Below, in pieces: positions 21,601 through 33,219 of a DNA stretch of 64,000 bases. A program made the position numbers and the translations under genes. The notes under the pieces were generated by a model. The model had not been told where the DNA came from. It made no database searches and saw only the letters and a program-made list of their open reading frames with translations. Source of the stretch: Candidatus Lambdaproteobacteria bacterium RIFOXYD2_FULL_56_26 (lineage in GTDB: Bacteria > SAR324 > XYD2-FULL-50-16). The stretch is taken from positions 19,366-83,365 of the forward strand of contig MFNF01000017.1 in the NCBI GenBank assembly GCA_001783715.1, given 5' to 3'. Positions within the stretch are counted from its first letter, which is position 1. The number at the start of each line of letters is the position of its first letter.

Positions 21601-23031
21601 TTAAAACTCGGCATCCAAAGCAATCCAGGCGTAGTTACTGCCGGATTTCAGGAAACAAGGTTCGTTGATGTTGTAATCGTTGCCGGCACTGAATTCCATT
21701 ACTACTGAAACCAAATTTCCAACATTTGCATAGGCTGAAAGCAAGGACACGTTGTAGGAAACATAGTTGTTGTCCGAAGGCCTCCGAGAGTATCCCTGCC
21801 AAGTACCGCCATATGTCAAGTGGGGTAAGAAGAGTCTCATCGGCACCGGGGTAGAGAAGACCCCTTGGAAGGATAACCCGGAAGCAGACATGGCCCTGCA
21901 CAAAGCGACCTTGGTTTCTGGAAAGGTGGAGAAGCGGAAGTAAAAGGCTTGGGCCAATCGTAACTCCTCTTTGGCACACCGGAGATCAATCAAGGTTGCT
22001 ACCGGTCCTTCTTCAAGCTGCATCTGGCCCAGTTTGACCAGACCCCCGGCACCCAAGGAGCCGTCCGGCAAGACCAAAGCGAATTCCAATCCGTTCTCTA
22101 GGCCCGTGAAGGCAGAAAGATCAATCGTGGCCTTGACTTTGGTCCAAGTTGCAGGGGGGCAAGGTTGCAGAGCCTTGGTGGTATTGGCATTAAAGGCAAC
22201 AAAGGTGTCTTCCACGGTCGGGGTACAGTAGCGGATCGAAGGGGTGAAACTGCTGGCTCCGCCGTTGTAAATCCAGGCGGAATAGGTGGCCAACCCGCGG
22301 ATCATCGGGGTCATGGAGGCCTCGATTCGTTGCAGTACCTCAACCGTAGTCAGCCCGGTGGCACCGGTGAGCTGCATCAGGTACCGGCTTTTGCCGTTGG
22401 GCGGGTAGCCTGCCACCCGGTCAACCGTGACCGATGCCCCAAATGCAGTAATCATAAACCGGTCAGCCGCATATGCAGTAGTTGCGGTAAAAGTGGTCCC
22501 CCGTTGCCAAATGTCCAGGTTACCGTTGATCAGGACGTTTTTGAACCCCTGGGTCCGCTCCAACCTGGGGTTGCTCCGAGGGGCCAGGAAGTGGGCAAAG
22601 GGAGTGGTTCCGGGGGCGAGGATAGGGTCGTTGCCGGGGAGAGTAGCTTGGTAGTAGCCGGTGTAAAGTACCGGAAAAAGGTTGGAAGCATGGGCCAAGG
22701 CATTGTAGCCTTGGAGGGTGATTTTTTCGATCAGCCCGGTGTTGAGGTTGGCAAACCAAAGTTCGTGGGTGCTGCTGATGGTGACGGCCGTGTCGGCAAA
22801 GCTTTGGGTGGTCAAGGCTCCGGTGACAGGTTCATAAAACTCGACCACTAGATTTTTGAGCTGTCCTGAAATCGAATCATACTCACCTTCCAAGAGCCTA
22901 GTCTGGCTGTTGAGGCTGCTCAGGACCTGGGAAAGGATGTGGTAGCTGCGATAAAAGGGGCCGTCCCAGGTTTCGCTCCCTGGCTCGCTGTAACAAAGAC
23001 CTAAAGAGTCCATTTTTTCGGTAAACGCCAT
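21601..23031 (-). CDS. phage tail fibre-like protein, paralog 2
   Basis: 476 aa. The N-terminus (SEPGSETWDGPFYRSYHILSQVLSSLN) is near-identical to the next gene. A conserved mid-block (APRSNPRLERTQGFKNVLINGNLDIWQRG) is followed by a diverged C-terminal part. Position immediately after gpJ/gpI-like genes. Confidence 0.55.
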   Translation of the reverse strand: MAFTEKMDSLGLCYSEPGSETWDGPFYRSYHILSQVLSSLNSQTRLLEGEYDSISGQLKNLVVEFYEPVTGALTTQSFADTAVTISSTHELWFANLNTGLIEKITLQGYNALAHASNLFPVLYTGYYQATLPGNDPILAPGTTPFAHFLAPRSNPRLERTQGFKNVLINGNLDIWQRGTTFTATTAYAADRFMITAFGASVTVDRVAGYPPNGKSRYLMQLTGATGLTTVEVLQRIEASMTPMIRGLATYSAWIYNGGASSFTPSIRYCTPTVEDTFVAFNANTTKALQPCPPATWTKVKATIDLSAFTGLENGLEFALVLPDGSLGAGGLVKLGQMQLEEGPVATLIDLRCAKEELRLAQAFYFRFSTFPETKVALCRAMSASGLSFQGVFSTPVPMRLFLPHLTYGGTWQGYSRRPSDNNYVSYNVSLLSAYANVGNLVSVVMEFSAGNDYNINEPCFLKSGSNYAWIALDAEF

Positions 23032-23190: not shown

Positions 23191-24645
23191 TTAAAAGTCG
23201 CCTAAGATCCAAATATTCTCTTCAATCATGTAATAATAAGAAGCAGAGGGGACAGCACTAGTGGCATCGAAAAAGAGCATGGCACTGTAAAGCGTAATAT
23301 GTGACAAACTGGGATTGCTGAGTTGTATTGAACCGACAGAAAACCAAGTGATGGTTTCAGTTCCCGACTGCATTACGCTGAGAGCCGTGTTCGCCTTGGG
23401 CACTTGAAATCTTACATCTGCATAACAGACAGTGCCATCGAAGCCGTTAATGTGAGTCATGGCTGCGACTTTTTCCATGTACCGCTGGCAGAGCACCAGT
23501 TCTTCCTGCTCATTGCGAAATTCAAAGCCGGTGGGGATGGAGCCGACCTCCAGCTGCACCTGAGAAAGGGCAAAGTTGTTTAAGGTCCCCGCTTGGTTGA
23601 CTTGGTTTGCCGTACCGTACACCTGAGCGCCCGACCAACTGTCTTTGGCCCCCTGCCAATTGGAGCCGATCACCAAGGCCCAGTTGACTCGCAACCCAAC
23701 CACGCCGGGGCTGGTCAACCAGGAGGAAACTTGGTCGTCAAAGCGCAAGGTGATGGATTTTTTCTCCCAGCTGTTGGCGGCTTGGATGCTGTATTCGGCC
23801 AAGTAACTTCGGGTGCCGTCATGGTTGAGGAAAGAAACGCTGTAAGTCCCAGGGACTCCTGACCGGACCCAAAAGCTTAAGGTCAGTTCCTGGCCCAACA
23901 AAACCCTGGACAAGTGTCCTTCGATCCGTTGGCTGATAAAACAAAGAGAGTCCGGGGTGGAAGCCAGGGACGCATTGTTTTGGACGGTGGCCACATCGGT
24001 TTGAAAGCAATTTTTGGAATGGACCCCACTTTGGGAAGGCGTAGGAGGATTGTTTTCTAGGGCCACATTATAGACCGCCGTGCAAGTGGGATTGTTGTAA
24101 AAATACCAACGGTCCGCAGTGTACTGTGCCCCGCCGACCCCAAGAAAACTGGACCCTCGCTGCCAAATGTCAAAGTTTCCGTTCATAATCAGGTTCTTAA
24201 AATGCCGCTGTTTTTCCATCCTGGGGTTGGTCCTGGGGGCCAGGAGCTCGGCGAAGGGGGTCCGGGTTGCACCGGCGGATTGGTAAAAACCTGTGTAAAG
24301 TAAGGGAAATTTGTTGAGCTGATGGGAAACCGATTGGTAGTTGTCCAAGGTCTGTTTGGCGATTTGCCCGGTCAGGCTGTCGGCGTACCAAAGTTCCGGC
24401 AGGTCGGAGATGGTGACCCCCAGGTCCGGGAAAGCCATGCGGGTGAGGCTGTTGGCGGTAGGATTAAAAAACTCCACTTCGATGCCTTTGAGCAAACCAG
24501 TGGTGTCCGTAAGGGATTGATACTCCCCTTTGGTCAACCTAGATTGACCGTTGAGGTTGCTCAAAACGTGAGAAAGAATGTGATAAGACCGGTAAAAAGG
24601 TCCGTCCCAGGTCTCGCTGCCCGGTTCGCCAAACTGCAGTCCCAA
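23191..24645 (-). CDS. phage tail fibre-like protein, paralog 1
   Basis: 484 aa. Shares the N-terminal anchor block (EPGSETWDGPFYRSYHILSHVLSNLN) and the mid-block (APRTNPRMEKQRHFKNLIMNGNFDIWQRG) with 21601..23031. The distal part is diverged. Confidence 0.55.
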   Translation of the reverse strand: MGLQFGEPGSETWDGPFYRSYHILSHVLSNLNGQSRLTKGEYQSLTDTTGLLKGIEVEFFNPTANSLTRMAFPDLGVTISDLPELWYADSLTGQIAKQTLDNYQSVSHQLNKFPLLYTGFYQSAGATRTPFAELLAPRTNPRMEKQRHFKNLIMNGNFDIWQRGSSFLGVGGAQYTADRWYFYNNPTCTAVYNVALENNPPTPSQSGVHSKNCFQTDVATVQNNASLASTPDSLCFISQRIEGHLSRVLLGQELTLSFWVRSGVPGTYSVSFLNHDGTRSYLAEYSIQAANSWEKKSITLRFDDQVSSWLTSPGVVGLRVNWALVIGSNWQGAKDSWSGAQVYGTANQVNQAGTLNNFALSQVQLEVGSIPTGFEFRNEQEELVLCQRYMEKVAAMTHINGFDGTVCYADVRFQVPKANTALSVMQSGTETITWFSVGSIQLSNPSLSHITLYSAMLFFDATSAVPSASYYYMIEENIWILGDF

Positions 24646-24849: not shown

Positions 24850-25446
24850 TTAATGTCCCAAAAAAAACCAGCCTAGAGGCGAGACCCCCAACCCAACGGT
24901 TTTGGGTTCAGGTGGGTGGGCCAAGGCGTAGGCGGTTTCGGCCAGGGTTCGGCCCAGCTTTACCCGGCCCAGGCCGCCGGGCAGCCTGGGGTAAAGGATG
25001 TCGCTGCTGAATTTGCACCTCGCCGGGGAGATGTGCAGGATGTACTGGGTGATCAGGTTCATGTCGTTGGCCCCTGGGTCCAGACGGATCCGCAAACATT
25101 GGGGACCATAGAGTTCCCGGTACGGAAAGGTCGGGGACCTCAGGTCGATCCACTCGAAGTAGGAAAGCCCAAACAGGGTCTGGACCGCTTGCAGGGACCG
25201 GAGGGTCCCAAAATCTTGGGCTAAAATCTCATACCCTTGGATGTATTCCCGCTTGGACTGGTTCAATTCGGCGGGCCGGTTGGGCAGTTCCTCCCACCAC
25301 TGGTCAACCGCCGTGCCGGGCATGCTGTTGAAGTGAACCCAATCGGCAATTTGGTTCACCTTTTCCGTCATCAGCCCCCAACAAACTTCTTTGAGTTTGT
25401 ACAAGTGCAAAACCGGGGGGCTTTGCAACCACCATTTTGTAATCAT
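24850..25446 (-). CDS. phage tail protein I-like (P2 gpI / Mu gp48 family) baseplate protein
   Basis: 198 aa. WWEELPNRPAELNQSKREYIQGYEILAQDFGTLRSLQAV resembles the conserved W..W..kR..I...h..kGT core of Tail_P2_I. Located directly after baseplate J as in P2/Mu. Confidence 0.4.
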   Translation of the reverse strand: MITKWWLQSPPVLHLYKLKEVCWGLMTEKVNQIADWVHFNSMPGTAVDQWWEELPNRPAELNQSKREYIQGYEILAQDFGTLRSLQAVQTLFGLSYFEWIDLRSPTFPYRELYGPQCLRIRLDPGANDMNLITQYILHISPARCKFSSDILYPRLPGGLGRVKLGRTLAETAYALAHPPEPKTVGLGVSPLGWFFLGH

Positions 25447-26634: not shown

Positions 26635-26874
26635 TCAGCTGACCAGGGTAGAAGTGAAGGTCCCGGTGACCGGCCCCGAAGGACTGGTTCCGGTGATGGT
26701 CCCTGTGACCACTGCCTTTTTGACCTCCAGAACGATCAGGTTGATCAAGTCCTTGAGGTCCTGAGGGGCCACCGCCTGCTCGCCGTAGCGGCTTTGCAGC
26801 AGACTTTGGAATTGGGTGGCAATGCCGTTTGAATCCATGGCCATGGCGGTCCTATTTTTGGGTGGTTTTGCCAA
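26635..26874 (-). CDS. small hypothetical protein in the baseplate module (79 aa)
   Basis: Gly/Thr-rich C-terminus VVTGTITGTSPSGPVTGTFTSTLVS. Overlaps the spike gene 3' end; the true start may be an internal Met at about 26844. Could be a PAAR-like tip or plug, but no PAAR motif was recognised. Confidence 0.3.
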   Translation of the reverse strand: MAKPPKNRTAMAMDSNGIATQFQSLLQSRYGEQAVAPQDLKDLINLIVLEVKKAVVTGTITGTSPSGPVTGTFTSTLVS

Positions 26875-27445
26875 GTTTAACGTTAGATTTGATCAAGTCG
26901 TAGTTGTTTTTCAGGTTGGCTAGGTTTTGTTGCACCGTGGCAAGATTGGCCAGGGGGCTGCCCAGGTTCCCGGCTTGGCCCAACAGTTCAATGGCATCCA
27001 TAATCCCGGTCAAGAGATCACAAAGCTTGTTGGCCAAGACGGCAAAATCCTCTCCCGAACCGATTTCAATTTGGTCGGCTCCCTCTAAACGCAGAACCCC
27101 GGATTTTTGCTGCACCTCTTGCCCTTCGGGCATCAAGGCCAACAGCACCGCCTGGTTCATTCGCCAGTAGGGAAAAGCCAAAAGGCAAAGGTCGCCGGGC
27201 CTTGGGGGGTCAAAAATATGCCGGGAGACCCGATGCAGCGGAATCTGGGTCAAAGTGTTCAGGCCGGGCAAAGCCGTAAAGTCCCCGGCCAAAAGCTGAA
27301 CGTCGCAGCAGGCGTAAGGGGTCGCCTTGGAATGTTTCCCGGCGGCTTCATAGACCTTTTGCACTTTGGCGTAATACAGGTGCTGGTAGCCCCCCAAGCC
27401 CGGAAAGGCACGGAGTACCAGCTTTTTAAGATCCTTGAGCAGCAT
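26852..27445 (-). CDS. baseplate spike protein, gpV / Mu gp45-like (Phage_base_V OB-fold)
   Basis: YAKVQKVYEAAGK...VQLL...FDPPRPGDLCLLAFPYWRMNQAVLLALMP matches the gpV pattern (W.PP.vGeqVlvlf.gGd...gvvlg..y). C-terminal coiled-coil-like segment. Confidence 0.45.
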   Translation of the reverse strand: MLLKDLKKLVLRAFPGLGGYQHLYYAKVQKVYEAAGKHSKATPYACCDVQLLAGDFTALPGLNTLTQIPLHRVSRHIFDPPRPGDLCLLAFPYWRMNQAVLLALMPEGQEVQQKSGVLRLEGADQIEIGSGEDFAVLANKLCDLLTGIMDAIELLGQAGNLGSPLANLATVQQNLANLKNNYDLIKSNVKLGKTTQK

Positions 27446-27779
27446 ACAGCAGGTCCTCGAAGTACAGGGTCAAACTCTTGCCGGAGTCGTAGGAAAGCTC
27501 CAGCCGGAGATCCAATTTGGAGCCTTGGAGTTGGTGCTTGATGCTGCCGACCCGAATCTCCGGGTGAGACATTTCCAAACTGAACATCAGCTGGGTGGCG
27601 ATCAACTCGGCCTCTTCCGGTTCGGCACCAAAAAAAAGTCGGGCCAAGGGACTGTCCATCAAGGCAAGCTGGATCGATTGGGTCAAAGCGCCTTCTCCAG
27701 TCACCAGCAAAGGTTCGGCAAATTCATCGAGTTGAAAACCCAGAGAGACCGGGTCCCATTTAAGGTCGAGCAGGGTCAT
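27426..27779 (-). CDS. gp25 / gpW-like baseplate wedge protein (GPW_gp25 family)
   Basis: 117 aa. ALTQSIQLALMDSPLARLFFGAEP ... ELIATQLMFSLEMSHPEIRV parallels P2 gpW ISQSIGDILRTPVGSRVMRRDYG ... ELQIKVACYMAVLKWEPRV. Confidence 0.55.
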   Translation of the reverse strand: MTLLDLKWDPVSLGFQLDEFAEPLLVTGEGALTQSIQLALMDSPLARLFFGAEPEEAELIATQLMFSLEMSHPEIRVGSIKHQLQGSKLDLRLELSYDSGKSLTLYFEDLLYAAQGS

Positions 27780-27809
27780 GTCGTTGTTTGGTGTGAGGTT
27801 GGGGGGAAT

Positions 27810-28508
27810 CTACAAACCGGAGTAGCTGGCAAAGCGTAGGCACATGGTGCCGGTCGAGGACCGGTAGCTAACCTTGTCGAGTACCTCGGTCTTTCCTGCC
27901 CAAACAACGGGGAGGTAAGGGATCAGCCCACACAAGGGGGCCAACTCCGGTCCTTCCTCCAAGTTTGCCACTAGGTCCGAGACCGGCAAGGGGACCGGCT
28001 CAACCGGGAAATGCCCTTGTTCGAGCAGAACCAACCTTTTGGCAGCCGGGTCGAGGTACCAACGGCTGGCACCCAAAGAGTAGATCTCTTGGAGTTGGTC
28101 CAGGCCGTTGCGCAGGCTCCCCAAGACTACTAGGCTTTCCACTTGGGAGGAGGGCACGGAGAGTTGGGAGGTAAAGCCAAGCCTTGCTTCGGCGGCAAGC
28201 GTCTTGAAGGCCTGGAGGTAGTTTTTTTGACTGATCTGCCGCCGGACCTGGGTCTCCAAAAGGCCGTGCAAGAGGCCGACCGCAAAACATTCAAAATGAA
28301 GCCCATCGGGCGATTTGACGGCAGTAACCTGTACCTCGCCGCAGGAAAAAACCTGGGTTCCCTCACCGAGGGCCAGTAAAAAGGGCTTGGAAGGATCGAT
28401 CGGTTCTTCCACCGCAAAATTCACCACACAGGGCCGCTGCCGCTCCAGGACAAGTTCAAACTCAACGGTTTGGAACGCCTGGGTTTGGTTGGAGAGCGTG
28501 ATCAACAT
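27810..28508 (-). CDS. hypothetical tail/baseplate protein (232 aa), possibly hub (gpD/gp44-like) component
   Basis: Position between the tape-measure-position gene and gp25. No motif recognised. Confidence 0.35.
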   Translation of the reverse strand: MLITLSNQTQAFQTVEFELVLERQRPCVVNFAVEEPIDPSKPFLLALGEGTQVFSCGEVQVTAVKSPDGLHFECFAVGLLHGLLETQVRRQISQKNYLQAFKTLAAEARLGFTSQLSVPSSQVESLVVLGSLRNGLDQLQEIYSLGASRWYLDPAAKRLVLLEQGHFPVEPVPLPVSDLVANLEEGPELAPLCGLIPYLPVVWAGKTEVLDKVSYRSSTGTMCLRFASYSGL

Positions 28509-28537
28509 AACAGGAACCTTTGGGGCTAAATAACGGT

Positions 28538-29245
28538 TTAGGCCTGATTTCTGGCGGCCACAAGGGAAAGGGCGGCGTTTTCGGGATTTACCTCGACCAC
28601 CCTAGGCATTCCGCTTTTGATCAACTTCTTTTGGGTTTCGTTCAGGTAAGGGACCATTTCCAAGGTCACGGTGGCCCGGTCTGCGCCAAGCTCCAGCCGC
28701 CGGTTTTTTAAGGTCACATACTGGACCCCCAATGCCCTGGTGTAGGGGTGGAGAATCTCGTAGTAATGGCCATCAAAAAAGAACCGATGGAAACTGGCCA
28801 ACCGGCTTTCCAAGGAAAAAATCTCCCCTTCGTTTGATTCGGATTCCCCCAGGGAGCCATAAAGCCAAGCCTCGACCTGAAGCAGGGTATGGCTCAGGTG
28901 TTGCGGACCGGTCTTTTGGCTGCTTTCTAGGATCGAAAGAATCCGGCCAAAAACAAAACTTTCCAGTTCGATCGCCAAACGACTGCTGGCGGAAACGGTG
29001 GCACCGATTCTTTCGGTGGCCTTTTGGCCAAAGGCGGCGATGCTGGCGAGCAGGTCTGCCTTTGGGTCCCGGGCGGCTTTGGGCTGGCTTGGAGCAAGGG
29101 TTTGGGTCAAACCTTGGGTGACCAAGGGATTCTCCACCAGCTTGCGAAGCACCAGGGGACTCTCGGAGGTGCGGTTGGTGTTTTGTTTCATGTGGTTCCT
29201 AAAAAGTTTGGTGGCTTCGACCTGATGATCGAGGCTGGGTCCCAC
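28538..29245 (-). CDS. hypothetical tail/baseplate protein (235 aa)
   Basis: Co-oriented and tightly spaced within the tail module. No motif recognised. Confidence 0.35.
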   Translation of the reverse strand: MGPSLDHQVEATKLFRNHMKQNTNRTSESPLVLRKLVENPLVTQGLTQTLAPSQPKAARDPKADLLASIAAFGQKATERIGATVSASSRLAIELESFVFGRILSILESSQKTGPQHLSHTLLQVEAWLYGSLGESESNEGEIFSLESRLASFHRFFFDGHYYEILHPYTRALGVQYVTLKNRRLELGADRATVTLEMVPYLNETQKKLIKSGMPRVVEVNPENAALSLVAARNQA

Positions 29246-29259
29246 CCAAAGTGGTGGGG

Positions 29260-30282
29260 CTAACCGGCCTGGGCTGCGGTTTGGGGCGTAATGCCCCCTT
29301 CCAATTTATAGTTGAAGGTTTGTTGGTTATAAACCTTGTGCTGGTGCTGGTGAATCTCTTGGACCAACTTGGGTTCCTGGGTCCTTCGTAGGTGCCCCGC
29401 CGTAGGTTTTCCCGGAACAAAGGTCCAGGGTTTTTGGCCTGCTGCGGTTCCCGTTCTTTGGGAGCTTTGGCCGGGTCTTACATTCCCGGTTTGGTTTGCT
29501 CCCTTGGCCGGGGAATAAATCTGCGAAAACTCCGGCGAGCCGGTCAGAGTAAACACCCCAAAGCCTGGGGGGAAAACAGACAACCCAACCGTGGCGGGTT
29601 GGCCATTCATGGGCAAAAAACTCTTGGCGAGCGAAGGACCGGGTGGCAGGTTCAACGGGAAAAGTCCCCCAATCCTTGGGCACCGGTCTGCTTGCATTGG
29701 CAGCTCTCTCGGGGCCGGGGTTGCCAAAGGGGCGAATGTTTCTTGCGGCCAAGGCTCCACCAAGCGGGGGTGAACTGGGTCCGGTACCGGAGACAGGGCC
29801 TCCGGTCGGGCCGAGAGCAGCTCCGGTTTTGGGAACCCCAATGGCAGATGCTTGGAGCAATCCAAGACCGGTTTTTTCCCAGGAAGGGCCTGGTCCCCTA
29901 CCCCCAAAACCTGCTCTTGGGGCATTGCCTTTTGGGGCTCTCTTTGGGGGACCGAAGCGGGGCTCGCCCAGGGGGTCTGGATTGAGGCCTTGGGGGTGTG
30001 GTTAAAAATCCTGGGGAGCAACACCGCCGCTTGTGGCTGGGATACAAGTTTTGGGGCGGCAGGAAACCCCTTTTGTCCTTTGGGGGCCACAAACAGTGGG
30101 GGTTCCCACAACTCGACCCAGGGGCTTTCTCCGAGCCTCCCAACCTCCGGCAAAGGCCAAACCTCCGACCAAACCGGGTCCGGAAAAATCGGCAACCACA
30201 AAGCCATTTGGGCCATAAAAGCTTCCATCACCTGGGCCAAGGTGGACTCTAAAATCGGGCCAGAATCAAGCGTTCCTTCCAT
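29260..30282 (-). CDS. Pro-rich low-complexity protein (340 aa) in the tape-measure position
   Basis: Longest frame in a region where both strands carry overlapping ORFs, which is typical of low-complexity high-GC DNA. About 20% Pro, predicted disordered. Located where Mu/P2-type clusters encode the tape measure. Confidence 0.35.
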   Translation of the reverse strand: MEGTLDSGPILESTLAQVMEAFMAQMALWLPIFPDPVWSEVWPLPEVGRLGESPWVELWEPPLFVAPKGQKGFPAAPKLVSQPQAAVLLPRIFNHTPKASIQTPWASPASVPQREPQKAMPQEQVLGVGDQALPGKKPVLDCSKHLPLGFPKPELLSARPEALSPVPDPVHPRLVEPWPQETFAPLATPAPRELPMQADRCPRIGGLFPLNLPPGPSLAKSFLPMNGQPATVGLSVFPPGFGVFTLTGSPEFSQIYSPAKGANQTGNVRPGQSSQRTGTAAGQKPWTFVPGKPTAGHLRRTQEPKLVQEIHQHQHKVYNQQTFNYKLEGGITPQTAAQAG

Positions 30283-30445
30283 AGGGCCTAGAGGTTAAAG
30301 AGGAGTTCACGAAGTGCGGATTTGTCCCTTTCTTCAAAGTGTAAGGCCAATGCGGCGGCCAGAAGAAAGGCTTCCTCGTCCAGTTGATTGGGATCGGCGG
30401 CAAGCCGGTGACGTAAAATCAGACCATTCAAGACCTCGACTTCAT

Positions 30446-30778
30446 TCAAACGCCGGTCTTGAGCTCGCCGATAATAGCCTGATTCCCCGCTAAAAAAGGA
30501 GCGAGCCGCAAAATGAGGTTGAGTTCCAAGGTGAAGTTCGTCGGGTCGTTTAAAAGTCGGACCAAGTCATTTTTCTGTTCCGGAACAACACAAAGCAAAA
30601 GCCATTTGCGGGCGGTTTCGATCCGTTTGAGTTCTCCGGCATAATAATCGGCGGCAAACTCAGCCACTTGAAGCCGGGTGAAGCCAAAGCGGAACTCAAA
30701 GTTTTCTTCCAAAAAGCGCACCGGAAGAACGGCGTTTCGGCAATGCATCATCACATTGCTTTCGGAAGTTGGGTTCAT
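30446..30778 (-). CDS. small protein (110 aa), possible tail assembly chaperone (gpE / gp41-like position)
   Basis: Between the tube gene and the tape-measure-position gene. No motif recognised. Confidence 0.3.
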   Translation of the reverse strand: MNPTSESNVMMHCRNAVLPVRFLEENFEFRFGFTRLQVAEFAADYYAGELKRIETARKWLLLCVVPEQKNDLVRLLNDPTNFTLELNLILRLAPFLAGNQAIIGELKTGV

Positions 30779-30936
30779 GGTGTCTCAAGTTGCAGCTGTA
30801 AAAAAGGGTTTGCCCAAGGGGAGGCAGGCCCTCCCCCAGGGGGCCGAGGGGAAGTCCCTCGGCCAGGGCCCGGACCAAGGTACCTTGGTCCGGGTAGGAA
30901 CCGAAGCCCATTGAGGGGACGTTCGGCCCAAAAGCC

Positions 30937-31374
30937 CTAGATGCCGCCTTTGATGGGCGGGCGTACCACCGAAACCCCGTTGACCAAAACATCGCCAGGC
31001 AAGATGGGCAATTCAAACTCAACGGCACCGCCGTTGAGTTTGTTGAGGTCGGGCAACTTGAACATCACCCGAACATTTTTCAAGGTGACCACAAAAGGCT
31101 CTTCGCCTGCGGGGCTGATGTCGAAGTTGATGAACGGAATCGGGGCGATGTCCTGCCAAGAACCGGCGGTTTTTGCCATGTTGGCGAAATGTTTCACCGT
31201 TTCTGCTTTGAGCAGGATGCTTCCCTTGGGGTCCACCCAACTTTTGGAGACCACCCCTTTTTCGATTTTGATGTAATCGGGGATCTCCAGTTTGATGGCG
31301 GTTGCGGTAATCATCTCGCCGTCGGAACTGATGATCCTCAAATCATAAGCGTCATATGCCGTTGCTCCAGCCAT
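30937..31374 (-). CDS. phage tail tube protein-like
   Basis: 145 aa, immediately downstream of the sheath gene with a 15-nt gap. Size and position typical of contractile-tail tube proteins. Confidence 0.45.
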   Translation of the reverse strand: MAGATAYDAYDLRIISSDGEMITATAIKLEIPDYIKIEKGVVSKSWVDPKGSILLKAETVKHFANMAKTAGSWQDIAPIPFINFDISPAGEEPFVVTLKNVRVMFKLPDLNKLNGGAVEFELPILPGDVLVNGVSVVRPPIKGGI

Positions 31375-31389: not shown

Positions 31390-32685
31390 TTAGATTTGGT
31401 TGATCAGTTCGATCGTCGAGTCCACCACCTTGATGCGGTTGACATCGGTAAGGGTGAAGAGGATGGAAATTCCCCCGGTGATCCAAGCGGTCGAAAGACT
31501 GTAGTCAAACAGCTCGCGGCTTTTGCCCGGAACCGGCTTTTTCATTTCTTCCAAACCCCGAGCGGCGATCTGAGCGGCCGCCATGGCCCCGCTGGCATCT
31601 TTGTTGAACTGGTTGGAGTTGATCAGGGGGAAGGCATAAAACAAGATGCCCCGCTTGGCCTTGTTGACCACCCGCCGTTGGGCCAAGGTAGTGACGGTAT
31701 CGGTGACCGAGTGCATGACCAAGTCGTCGTTGACGTAAACCGCCGAGGGATCTTCCACAAACCGTTTGAGGAACAGGCCCCGCCCTTCGTCTAGAACCAC
31801 GTATTGGGAATGGCCATAGCGGCTGTCGGTGGAAACCCCGACCATTGAACCATCGAGCACCTTGCCCAAAGAGGATTGGACTGGAATCCGAGCCAACCGA
31901 CCTCCAATGGCACCCATCCACTTGTCTTGGGTGGTCGGAGCCAAAATAGCCACCGAGCTGGAAGCAAAGGTCAAAAACTCGGCCTTAAAATTGGCGGCAT
32001 AAGAAGTGGGGGTTTCCTCCACTTTGTCACCGGCACCCCAAGTGTGGGCCACAGAGGACAAAGTGATGCCGATGGTCCCGGCGTTGGCATCCACCGAAGC
32101 GATGGGGTGCAGCCCAGCGAAGGGATTGGAACCTTGGATTTCAACGGTTTGTCCGACTTTGAGGTCGTGGCCCACACCGATGGTTAAGGTCAACTCGGTC
32201 GGAACGGTGGTAAAGTCGGCCGTCCCGGTTTGAGCCACATGGTAGGCTTTGCGGTACTGGATCACTGCCTCGAAGTACTGCTTTTGCGCTTCTTGGGCAG
32301 CGATGGCGCTACCCAGAGCATCGGCAAAAGCCAGATCCGCTGGGGACAGGAAGAACAGGGTGGAAACCTGATGGTTGGCTGCCAAATCGGCGATTTGGGC
32401 GGCCAAATTTGCGGCAATCAACTGGCCGGGAGCAACCAAGTAAACAACAGCCCAAAAGTTGGAGTTGCCGTTTGCCTGGGCGGTTTGAAGCTCAGAGATC
32501 AATGAGGCGCTACCGGCGAAGGTAGCCGAAAGGTCGGAGGTAAGGTCGATCACATACATTCCGGTCATGCTGGGGTGCTCGGCAAAATAGGCCTGTTTGA
32601 ACTCTTGGCCTTGGGGTGCCGATGCTCCGCCGGAGGTGATCTCTTGCAGGGTGATTCCGGTAACGGTCATTGGGTTTTTCTCCAA
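31390..32685 (-). CDS. phage tail sheath protein-like
   Basis: 431 aa; largest structural protein at the head of the module, followed by the tube gene. C-terminal ...ILFTLTDVNRIKVVDSTIELINQI. Assignment by context and size. Confidence 0.5.
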   Translation of the reverse strand: MEKNPMTVTGITLQEITSGGASAPQGQEFKQAYFAEHPSMTGMYVIDLTSDLSATFAGSASLISELQTAQANGNSNFWAVVYLVAPGQLIAANLAAQIADLAANHQVSTLFFLSPADLAFADALGSAIAAQEAQKQYFEAVIQYRKAYHVAQTGTADFTTVPTELTLTIGVGHDLKVGQTVEIQGSNPFAGLHPIASVDANAGTIGITLSSVAHTWGAGDKVEETPTSYAANFKAEFLTFASSSVAILAPTTQDKWMGAIGGRLARIPVQSSLGKVLDGSMVGVSTDSRYGHSQYVVLDEGRGLFLKRFVEDPSAVYVNDDLVMHSVTDTVTTLAQRRVVNKAKRGILFYAFPLINSNQFNKDASGAMAAAQIAARGLEEMKKPVPGKSRELFDYSLSTAWITGGISILFTLTDVNRIKVVDSTIELINQI

Positions 32686-32784: not shown

Positions 32785-33219
32785 TTAAATTCCAATCAGA
32801 TCCTCCCGCTCCAAAGCTTTGTATTCGACTCCCTTGTAGAAAATTCGGCTGTCTGCAGGGATCGAAGCCAGTTCTTCGGGAAGAATCAAACTCCAGCTCA
32901 GCCGCTCGACCAGCCGGAGCAAAAAGACGACCTTCAGGTGCAGCGAATCGACCTCGGTGGCGCTTTGGGAAAAACTTTCTCCAAGATGCCCATAAAGGGC
33001 GAACCATTCCTTGACCAACAAACTTAGGCTCAAGTGGTCTCGGGTTTTGTGGACCGGGTTGATTTCCAACTTGACCTGGTAAAGTTGGTCGATTTGTTTG
33101 GGGGTGGCACCGACCTCATAACCTTGGGTCTCTACGGACAAAATTAAAGGGACAAAGCTGGGGGCGGTGACCCCCGAATTGGCCACCAAGAAGTCAATCA
33201 AACTTTGGGCACGTTGCAT
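32785..33219 (-). CDS. hypothetical protein, first gene of the tail-like module (possibly DUF4255-like or tail completion)
   Basis: 144 aa. IDQLYQVKLEINPVHKTRDH loosely resembles the DUF4255 LfLYdirEN..lR block. Weak. Confidence 0.3.
   Translation of the reverse strand: MQRAQSLIDFLVANSGVTAPSFVPLILSVETQGYEVGATPKQIDQLYQVKLEINPVHKTRDHLSLSLLVKEWFALYGHLGESFSQSATEVDSLHLKVVFLLRLVERLSWSLILPEELASIPADSRIFYKGVEYKALEREDLIGI

Follow-up and report, generated by a model that had tools for sequence, protein, structure and literature searches.

Tape measure proteins are the textbook example of a molecular ruler, commonly taken to be a long helix of constant rise per residue, and have been described as "a long alpha-helical element" (PMC13585406). 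In the four reference systems used here (gpT of P2, gp42 of Mu, and the tape measures of FP_Mushu and of the Thermus phage Riverbug), they count 690 to 815 amino acids (aa), hold 2.0 to 4.1% proline and contain proline-free runs of 151 to 201 aa. Their genes share one slot, which follows the sheath, tube and frameshifted chaperone genes and precedes those for gpU-like, hub, wedge, J and I-like proteins. A hallmark of the tape-measure gene is the frameshifted chaperone pair found just ahead of it. λ G/GT, P2 E/E+E' and Mu gp41 all occupy two overlapping frames between the tube and the tape-measure genes; in λ and P2, the tape measure is held by both chaperone forms, which recruit tube subunits, and Mu gp41 has a -2 frameshift product. 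Here we analysed a stretch of 64,000 nucleotides (nt), hereafter "the window", from Candidatus Lambdaproteobacteria bacterium RIFOXYD2_FULL_56_26 (assembly GCA_001783715.1, contig MFNF01000017.1, positions 19,366 to 83,365); coordinates below are those of the window. It contains a compact contractile-tail cluster on the minus strand (about 33219 to 21601), in which the slot just described is occupied by an open reading frame (ORF) of 340 codons. Its product, named P340 here, is deposited in the NCBI annotation as hypothetical protein OGG99578.1 (UniRef100_A0A1F6GYY0).

We conclude that P340 is a genuine protein of 340 aa, and that it is probably the orthologue of tape measures in a contractile tail cluster that is Mu/P2-like and headless. 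Genes are found in the order tube, chaperone with a -1 extension, P340, g235, g232 and, further on, Baseplate_J, and this order is the same in P2, Mu, FP_Mushu and Riverbug. With FP_Mushu and Riverbug, order and sizes match gene for gene, except that the tape measures of these two phages have 795 and 762 aa. P340 is marked as the tape-measure gene by the frameshifted chaperone that lies directly upstream. The assignment of the ORF to the tape-measure slot of a Mu/P2-type cluster had been made in an original prediction, from the DNA letters of the window, and the sheath, tube, chaperone and baseplate neighbours bear it out. An Afp-type order, with another protein of the cluster as tape measure, was considered and rejected: the two large proteins encoded downstream (484 and 476 aa) are tail fibres of the phrog_4492 family.

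Comparative sequence analysis indicates that the P340 ORF encodes a genuine protein. With a codon model trained on 29 long genes of the window, the annotated frame ranked first of six, scoring -0.06 against -0.21 to -0.67 for the others. It alone is also open in every one of the six orthologous genes, and a stop-free centre was obtained in only 0.1% of shuffles. Across this centre, residual protein similarity between the window and its closest relative, the ENA contig L001, reached z = 9.4 in the annotated frame, against z ≤ 1.7 in the other sense frames and z = 4.5 in the in-register antisense frame. Start and stop positions are kept in the L001 orthologue.

These results bear on the idea that the annotation is an artefact, the real product being encoded in another frame or strand, or the ORF resulting from a sequencing frameshift. 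Many ORFs of 60 to 197 aa on both strands and a weak triplet GC periodicity (0.62, 0.50 and 0.63 at the first, second and third codon positions) could suggest it. The overlapping ORFs, already pointed out in the original prediction, are present because all six frames are stop-poor in the window and in L001 (window 29260-30282 and L001 10001-11005; 3 to 8 stops per roughly 340 codons), and none of the alternative frames is consistently open across orthologues. The alternative frames carry 3 to 7 stops in the window and up to 42 in the orthologous genes; in two of the latter, from L002 and L007, 7 to 20 stops were counted. Among sense frames, only the annotated one keeps protein similarity to L001 across the centre; in addition, start and stop are conserved, and several metagenome-assembled genomes (MAGs), independent of one another, contain the identical sequence. 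We therefore consider an artefact so improbable as to be almost negligible, and the suspicion that the true gene would be a different or a frameshifted one was contradicted by both the six-frame codon usage and the comparative frame tests.

Upstream of P340, an unexplained gap separates the ORF from the 110-aa gene; its length is 163 nt (30283..30445), and not 164 nt as first counted. Signals in the sequence predict that this gap is coding, as the distal part of an E/E'- (G/GT-) type chaperone expressed by -1 frameshifting. A slippery heptamer, sought near 30440, was found close by (Table 1), and T_TTT_TTA or T_TTT_TTG stands at the identical Pro-Phe-Leu codons in all five loci compared (window, L001, L002, L003 and L007). 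A candidate stimulating stem begins 6 nt 3' of the heptamer; it has 12 base pairs (outer stem in RNAalifold), and its 44-nt loop holds the zero-frame stop codon. Over the five loci, 60 of 60 stem cells are paired, with a switch between GC and AU in two columns, compared to 17 to 45% of paired cells in slid controls. The window sequence folds at -29.2 kcal/mol (z = -2.3). Covariation of the stem is no more than suggestive, given that the loci make up about four independent lineages and that both arms are also coding.

The -1 frame ends at a TAG placed 5 nt before the ATG of P340, and in the five loci its stop lies 0 to 17 nt before the next gene. The predicted fusion product (30288..30778) has 163 aa, with LAPFLSGESGYYR as predicted junction peptide. 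When the window was compared with L001 downstream of the zero-frame stop, 10 of 12 substitutions were synonymous in the -1 frame, the proportions of non-synonymous (pN) and synonymous (pS) differences being 0.017 and 0.270; this frame is therefore under purifying selection. In the two other frames of the same region, 2 of 12 and 0 of 11 substitutions were synonymous (pN/pS of 0.087/0.061 and 0.110/0). The -1 peptide is 38 to 44% identical in L002, L003 and L007, and is as conserved as the zero-frame chaperone, which shares 40 to 89% identity over the five loci and has a ratio of non-synonymous to synonymous substitution rates (dN/dS) of 0.09. Conservation of the heptamer and of the stem that follows it, with selection on the -1 frame, thus supports the frameshift product of E/E' type that the gap had been proposed to hide, and the MAG annotation can be corrected: the 163 nt taken as "intergenic" belong to the coding sequence for the predicted long chaperone form.

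At the sequence level, this chaperone stands apart. Two of the five orthologues gave a marginal match to Phage_TAC_10, the best match to a Pfam tail assembly chaperone (TAC) family having E = 0.12. Its profile showed no similarity to Pfam TAC families, and comparison with P2 gpE gave an hhalign probability of 0.2%.

Separately, we noticed that synonymous divergence from L001 is about 0.27 in the tube gene, in the E' extension and in the 62 N-terminal codons of P340 (window 30097-31374), and 0.57 to 0.72 in the zero-frame part of the chaperone and in the other genes of the cluster. The low value of this segment could come from a recent exchange or from extra constraint, such as RNA structure or translational coupling.

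With 53 prolines (15.6%, against 5.1% in the other ten tail proteins of the cluster) evenly distributed over residues 30 to 300, and no proline-free run above 28 aa, P340 is unable to form a long helix or coiled coil. It is thus, as had been anticipated, not a canonical alpha-helical tape measure. Its description as a low-complexity protein of about 20% proline stood in part only: it is proline-rich, at the lower percentage given above, its mean entropy over 40 aa is only mildly reduced (3.55 bits, against about 3.65 in its neighbours), and neither tandem repeats nor internal protein repeats were found in it. AlphaFold2 (AF2), run on a shallow alignment of three sequences, placed helices only in the two terminal modules (Table 1); residues 33 to 302 were left without secondary structure, at a predicted local distance difference test score (pLDDT) below 50. 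When the model was compared with the PDB by Foldseek, all matches were meaningless (E > 4).

Comparison with L001 delimits three modules in P340. The L001 locus is syntenic, with the same host genes on its flanks, and its orthologue, P0002, has 334 aa. The N-terminal 62 aa or so and the C-terminal 55 aa or so are nearly identical between the two proteins; overall identity is 47%, compared to 71 to 99% for the neighbouring proteins. At the DNA level, the central part (about 30122..29417) is some 45% identical, with many gaps, and its flanks 85 to 95%. Conserved ends together with a fast-evolving body are typical of tape measures. For the C-terminal 56 aa, dN/dS is 0.059; for the centre, where pN is 0.48, this ratio is uninformative, owing to saturation at synonymous sites and to a poor alignment. 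The motif [VI][YFH][NH]QQx7GG[LI][TS] is found at the extreme C-terminus in the window, L001, L002, both paralogues of L003 (see below) and L005, and in a degenerate form in L007. The N-terminal module weakly resembles the corresponding end of the L003 proteins (ME.T..., LP, WP.LP). A diversity-generating retroelement or repeat-driven hypervariability was looked for as a source of the divergence and rejected: there is no second copy of the segment in the window, and there are no tandem or internal repeats.

Such a centre might also belong to a decaying remnant of a tape measure, in a domesticated or dying prophage: it would drift neutrally, only the ends being constrained (perhaps as a hub plug), and tail length would be loose or set otherwise. 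The contrast in DNA identity between centre and neighbours, the saturated synonymous sites and high pN of the centre, the codon score near zero, a length below half that of the tape measures of the syntenic phages, and the lack of head genes in the cluster are all in line with this. Decay does not account, however, for a frame that stays open across some 220 diverged codons in every lineage, given the rarity of this outcome among shuffles for even one lineage (about 0.1%), nor for a length held within 334 to 361 aa and a proline content of 15.6% in both the window and L001. Moreover, neighbouring tail genes have dN/dS of 0.03 to 0.22 which, together with the value for the C-terminal module of P340, indicates that the cluster is under selection; purifying selection is strong on all of these neighbours and on the frameshift apparatus. 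We regard decay as unlikely, and keep for P340 the reading of a functional tape measure.

The same slot is filled in the other clusters by proteins of 334 aa and 15.6% proline (L001), 361 aa and 10.5% proline (L002, the MAG TamC13-09) and 348 aa and 12.9% proline (L007). Lengths are thus 340, 334, 361 and 348 aa in four lineages without an alignable centre. In L003, a Lambdaproteobacteria of RIFOXYD12 type, the slot holds two paralogues of 460 and 456 aa, with 6 to 7% proline and 12 to 13% glycine. These two proteins are 34% identical, yet only 4 aa apart in length. They have proline-free runs of 69 and 86 aa, and their proline-free C-terminal halves resemble ordinary tape measures; the 460-aa one gave a marginal match to phrog_1272 "tape measure" (E = 0.048).

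In L003 (12278-17824), and equally in L009 (7214-12089), the whole tape-measure module is duplicated. The first set comprises the 460-aa gene, then, on the reverse strand, a gene of about 205 aa whose product starts like a signal peptide, then a g235-like gene; the second set comprises genes of 456, about 201 and 192 aa. Cluster settings differ between lineages. The window and L001 share the same host genes. Host genes also flank the clusters of L002 and L003, the former lying between genes for a chemoreceptor-like protein and a sensor kinase, the latter beside a fliG-like gene.

Few sampled lineages carry such clusters. The sheath gave no tblastn match in cultured phages and a single locus in GTDB genomes, and a protein search with the sheath profile led back to the same five clusters. 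In IMG/VR, nothing was found with the tube, sheath and J profiles, and the tube profile found only the second L003 copy in JGI metagenomes. Because these searches yielded no further clusters, the clade is limited to about five sampled lineages, all of uncultured bacteria. A word-indexed search with P340 itself likewise retrieved only two relatives.

Tape measures are ejected from the tube on contraction. P340 might hence be a lumen cargo or an ejected effector, its centre being a payload, or a segment active on membranes or in the periplasm, that is expelled when the tail contracts and diverges in an arms race with its targets. This would fit the basic character of the centre (pI 9.95), its hypervariability between close relatives, the known ejection of tape measures and the presence of two diverged paralogues in the single L003 cluster. 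Scans of Pfam and PHROGs detected no toxin, enzyme or transmembrane domain in P340, however, the saturation of synonymous sites leaves dN/dS uninformative on an arms race, and conservation of length is not expected of a cargo. We think this explanation quite unlikely as an account of P340; an ejected role would in any case be compatible with a ruler role.

Several observations weigh against the assignment of P340 as a tape measure with a disordered, length-determining centre. P340 has no match to any tape-measure family in Pfam or PHROGs at E ≤ 0.1, and both its proline content and its AF2 model lack the long alpha-helical body expected of such proteins. An exhaustive HMMER search among 1.84 billion representatives returned only two relatives. 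The link with L002, L003 and L007 consists of the C-terminal motif, about 25 aa long, with pairwise E values of 0.01 to 0.06 in a tiny database; this link is statistically weak, and consistent in register and position. The codon score of P340 is near zero (-0.06), against 0.2 to 0.4 in its neighbours. Its centre diverges at about the neutral rate, and relaxed constraint would look alike. The disorder that had been predicted for the protein found weak support: its charge-hydropathy index is weakly positive (0.13), which gives no disorder call, and its low pLDDT, obtained from a shallow alignment, is not specific for disorder because g232, a presumably folded neighbour, scored 32 when modelled by AF2 from its single sequence. 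Finally, P340 is known from its sequence alone, no particle, tail length or peptide having been observed.

In the scheme we favour, that of a tape measure handled by a frameshifted chaperone, ribosomes translating the 110-aa gene would mostly stop at 30446, and a fraction of them would slip by -1 on T_TTT_TTA, aided by the stem, to give the 163-aa form. By analogy with λ and P2, the short and long chaperone forms would hold P340 and bring tube subunits to it. The C-terminal helix and GG motif of P340 may dock in the baseplate hub, and its acidic N-terminal helix may stand at the distal end, where the tube is capped, or engage the chaperone. Its centre, of about 220 to 270 residues, would occupy the lumen of the tube as an extended chain, irregular or polyproline-II-like, because a proline roughly every six residues precludes a long coiled coil. 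Selection would then act on the length and composition of this centre rather than on its sequence, as suits a ruler. That P340 occupies the tape-measure slot is supported as said above; its role as an unusual length determinant, the other half of that proposal, is suggested by position, conserved termini and conserved length.

P340 may even represent a second physical kind of tail ruler, an extended polyproline-II-like chain with a rise of about 0.3 nm per residue instead of about 0.15 nm in a helix. We advance this tentatively, as something possible rather than probable. If true, 340 residues (about 100 nm) would give a tail as long as do helical tape measures of 760 to 815 residues (about 115 to 120 nm), and the tails would have converged with the flexible rulers FliK and YscP. 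As a numerical observation, which is not evidence, 340 residues at about 0.31 nm make about 105 nm, compared to 114 to 122 nm for 762 to 815 residues at 0.15 nm.

Features of the cluster are collected in Table 1. It is flanked by host genes, namely PCMT, Usp, PilZ and Pel on one side and DUF790, PHP, FtsK_4TM, Rho and RF-1 on the other. As in R-type tailocins, only tail genes are present: no head, replication or integration genes were found between 33219 and about 21601. With host genes on both flanks and no head genes, the element is therefore a headless tail cluster. The ORFs scanned included no holin or endolysin gene, a systematic search not having extended to small ORFs or to genes further away.

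The sheath is 91% identical to its L001 orthologue. In these two proteins (431 and 426 aa), an insertion of about 80 aa is present at roughly residues 146 to 225; it is missing from the 350- to 358-aa sheaths of the other four lineages. Tube proteins share 72 to 99% identity over the five loci, and the tube gene has the size and position of those of FP_Mushu and Riverbug.

Just downstream of P340, g235 probably starts at the ATG at 29191 and not at the GTG at 29245 of the mechanical ORF list: in the alignment, its orthologues begin at the equivalent of this internal methionine. Its counterparts have 191 aa in FP_Mushu and 182 aa in Riverbug. For g232 they are a "Mu P44-like" protein of 251 aa in FP_Mushu and one of 223 aa in Riverbug, so that, by position and size, g232 is a putative Mu gp44-like hub protein. 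Sequence and profile searches with g232 and g235 returned nothing from the PDB, Pfam or PHROGs.

At the end of the cluster, the two tail-fibre genes (21601-23031 and 23191-24645) are tandem paralogues with a common N-terminal segment (EPGSETWDGPFYRSYHILS...) and divergent C-terminal halves; this could provide two receptor specificities.

Table 1. Features of the tail cluster, in the order of transcription, with nested features below the gene to which they belong
Feature	Coordinates	Strand	Evidence and remarks
144-aa gene	32785..33219	-	no family match
Tail sheath, 431 aa, DUF2586 family	31390..32685	-	Pfam PF10758, E = 4.6e-21; phrog_907 "tail sheath", 1.2e-20
Tail tube protein, 145 aa	30937..31374	-	phrog_1182 "tail protein", 6e-4; directly after sheath gene
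Putative short zero-frame tail assembly chaperone, 110 aa (E/G analogue)	30446..30778	-	no significant Pfam/PHROG match
Slippery heptamer T_TTT_TTA	30497..30491	-	zero-frame codons CCT TTT TTA, Pro-Phe-Leu 94-96; X_XXY_YYZ form, correct register
Candidate frameshift-stimulating stem-loop	30417..30484	-	5' arm 30484..30473, 3' arm 30428..30417
Predicted E'-type extension, -1 frame, 67 aa	30288..30491	-	TAG at 30290..30288; open from before heptamer
P340, 340-aa ORF	29260..30282	-	ATG start; no family match
P340 residues 1-62, conserved acidic N-terminal module	30097..30282	-	pI 4.05; predicted helix 9-32, pLDDT about 64
P340 residues 63-284, proline-rich basic fast-evolving centre	29431..30096	-	39 Pro in 222 aa; pI 9.95; pLDDT 30-39
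P340 residues 285-340 and stop, conserved C-terminal module	29260..29430	-	predicted helix 303-328; motif KVYNQQTFNYKLEGGITP
g235, g232 and g117	27426..29245	-	no family match at E ≤ 0.01
g235, first gene after tape-measure slot, probably 217 aa	28538..29191	-	position and size like the P2 gpU-like tail assembly gene of FP_Mushu
g232, second gene after tape-measure slot	27810..28508	-	position and size like a Mu gp44-like hub gene
g197	26852..27445	-	phrog_4011 baseplate protein, 1.5e-9
g79	26635..26874	-	no family match
Baseplate_J-like wedge protein, 361 aa	25459..26544	-	Pfam Baseplate_J, 1.4e-14; phrog_6, 4.5e-30
198-aa gene	24850..25446	-	no family match
Tail fibres (two genes)	23191..24645 and 21601..23031	-	phrog_4492, 9e-47 and 8e-30

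A non-helical tape-measure orthologue that keeps its length while its sequence drifts would test the assumption of a fixed rise per residue, and would show whether tail length is set by residue count alone or by this count multiplied by a rise that depends on conformation. Engineered tailocins or injection systems would also gain a compact ruler. A literature search of incomplete coverage brought up neither a description of a proline-rich or non-helical tape measure nor any paper that mentions DUF2586. The proline-rich tape measure would be a new variant, and the chaperone frameshift a further case of a well-known type. A suitable label for OGG99578.1 and its relatives is "putative tape measure protein".

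Among known systems, the P2 annotation has the same chaperone layout as the window, the long form ending at the start of the tape-measure gene; the window chaperone differs from P2 gpE and the TAC families by the absence of detectable sequence similarity and by its conserved 12-base-pair stem with a 44-nt loop. Injection systems of the Afp/PVC type are a poorer match. No AAA+ ATPase (Afp15-like) was found among the ORFs of the cluster, the genes that follow the fibres are host genes, and the tape-measure slot follows the phage order.

For an unfolded or extended tape measure, the literature on T4 provides a precedent: the tape measure was proposed to enter the baseplate unfolded and to extend as the tube grows, and gp29 appears in the lumen as a poorly ordered density about 20 Å wide (PMC3004832). 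A functional analogy can also be drawn with FliK and YscP, the rulers of type III systems, whose ruler segments are flexible, non-globular and contain prolines. The intrinsically disordered linker of FliK has ten prolines, and hooks become shorter when parts of it are deleted (PMC6972891). P340 lacks a T3S4/FliK domain (and any Pfam match at all), and its cluster is made of phage-tail, not type III secretion, components. The analogy is therefore one of function only: FliK and YscP are unrelated to P340 in sequence and machinery, and they are secreted intermittently, whereas P340 would be built into the tube.

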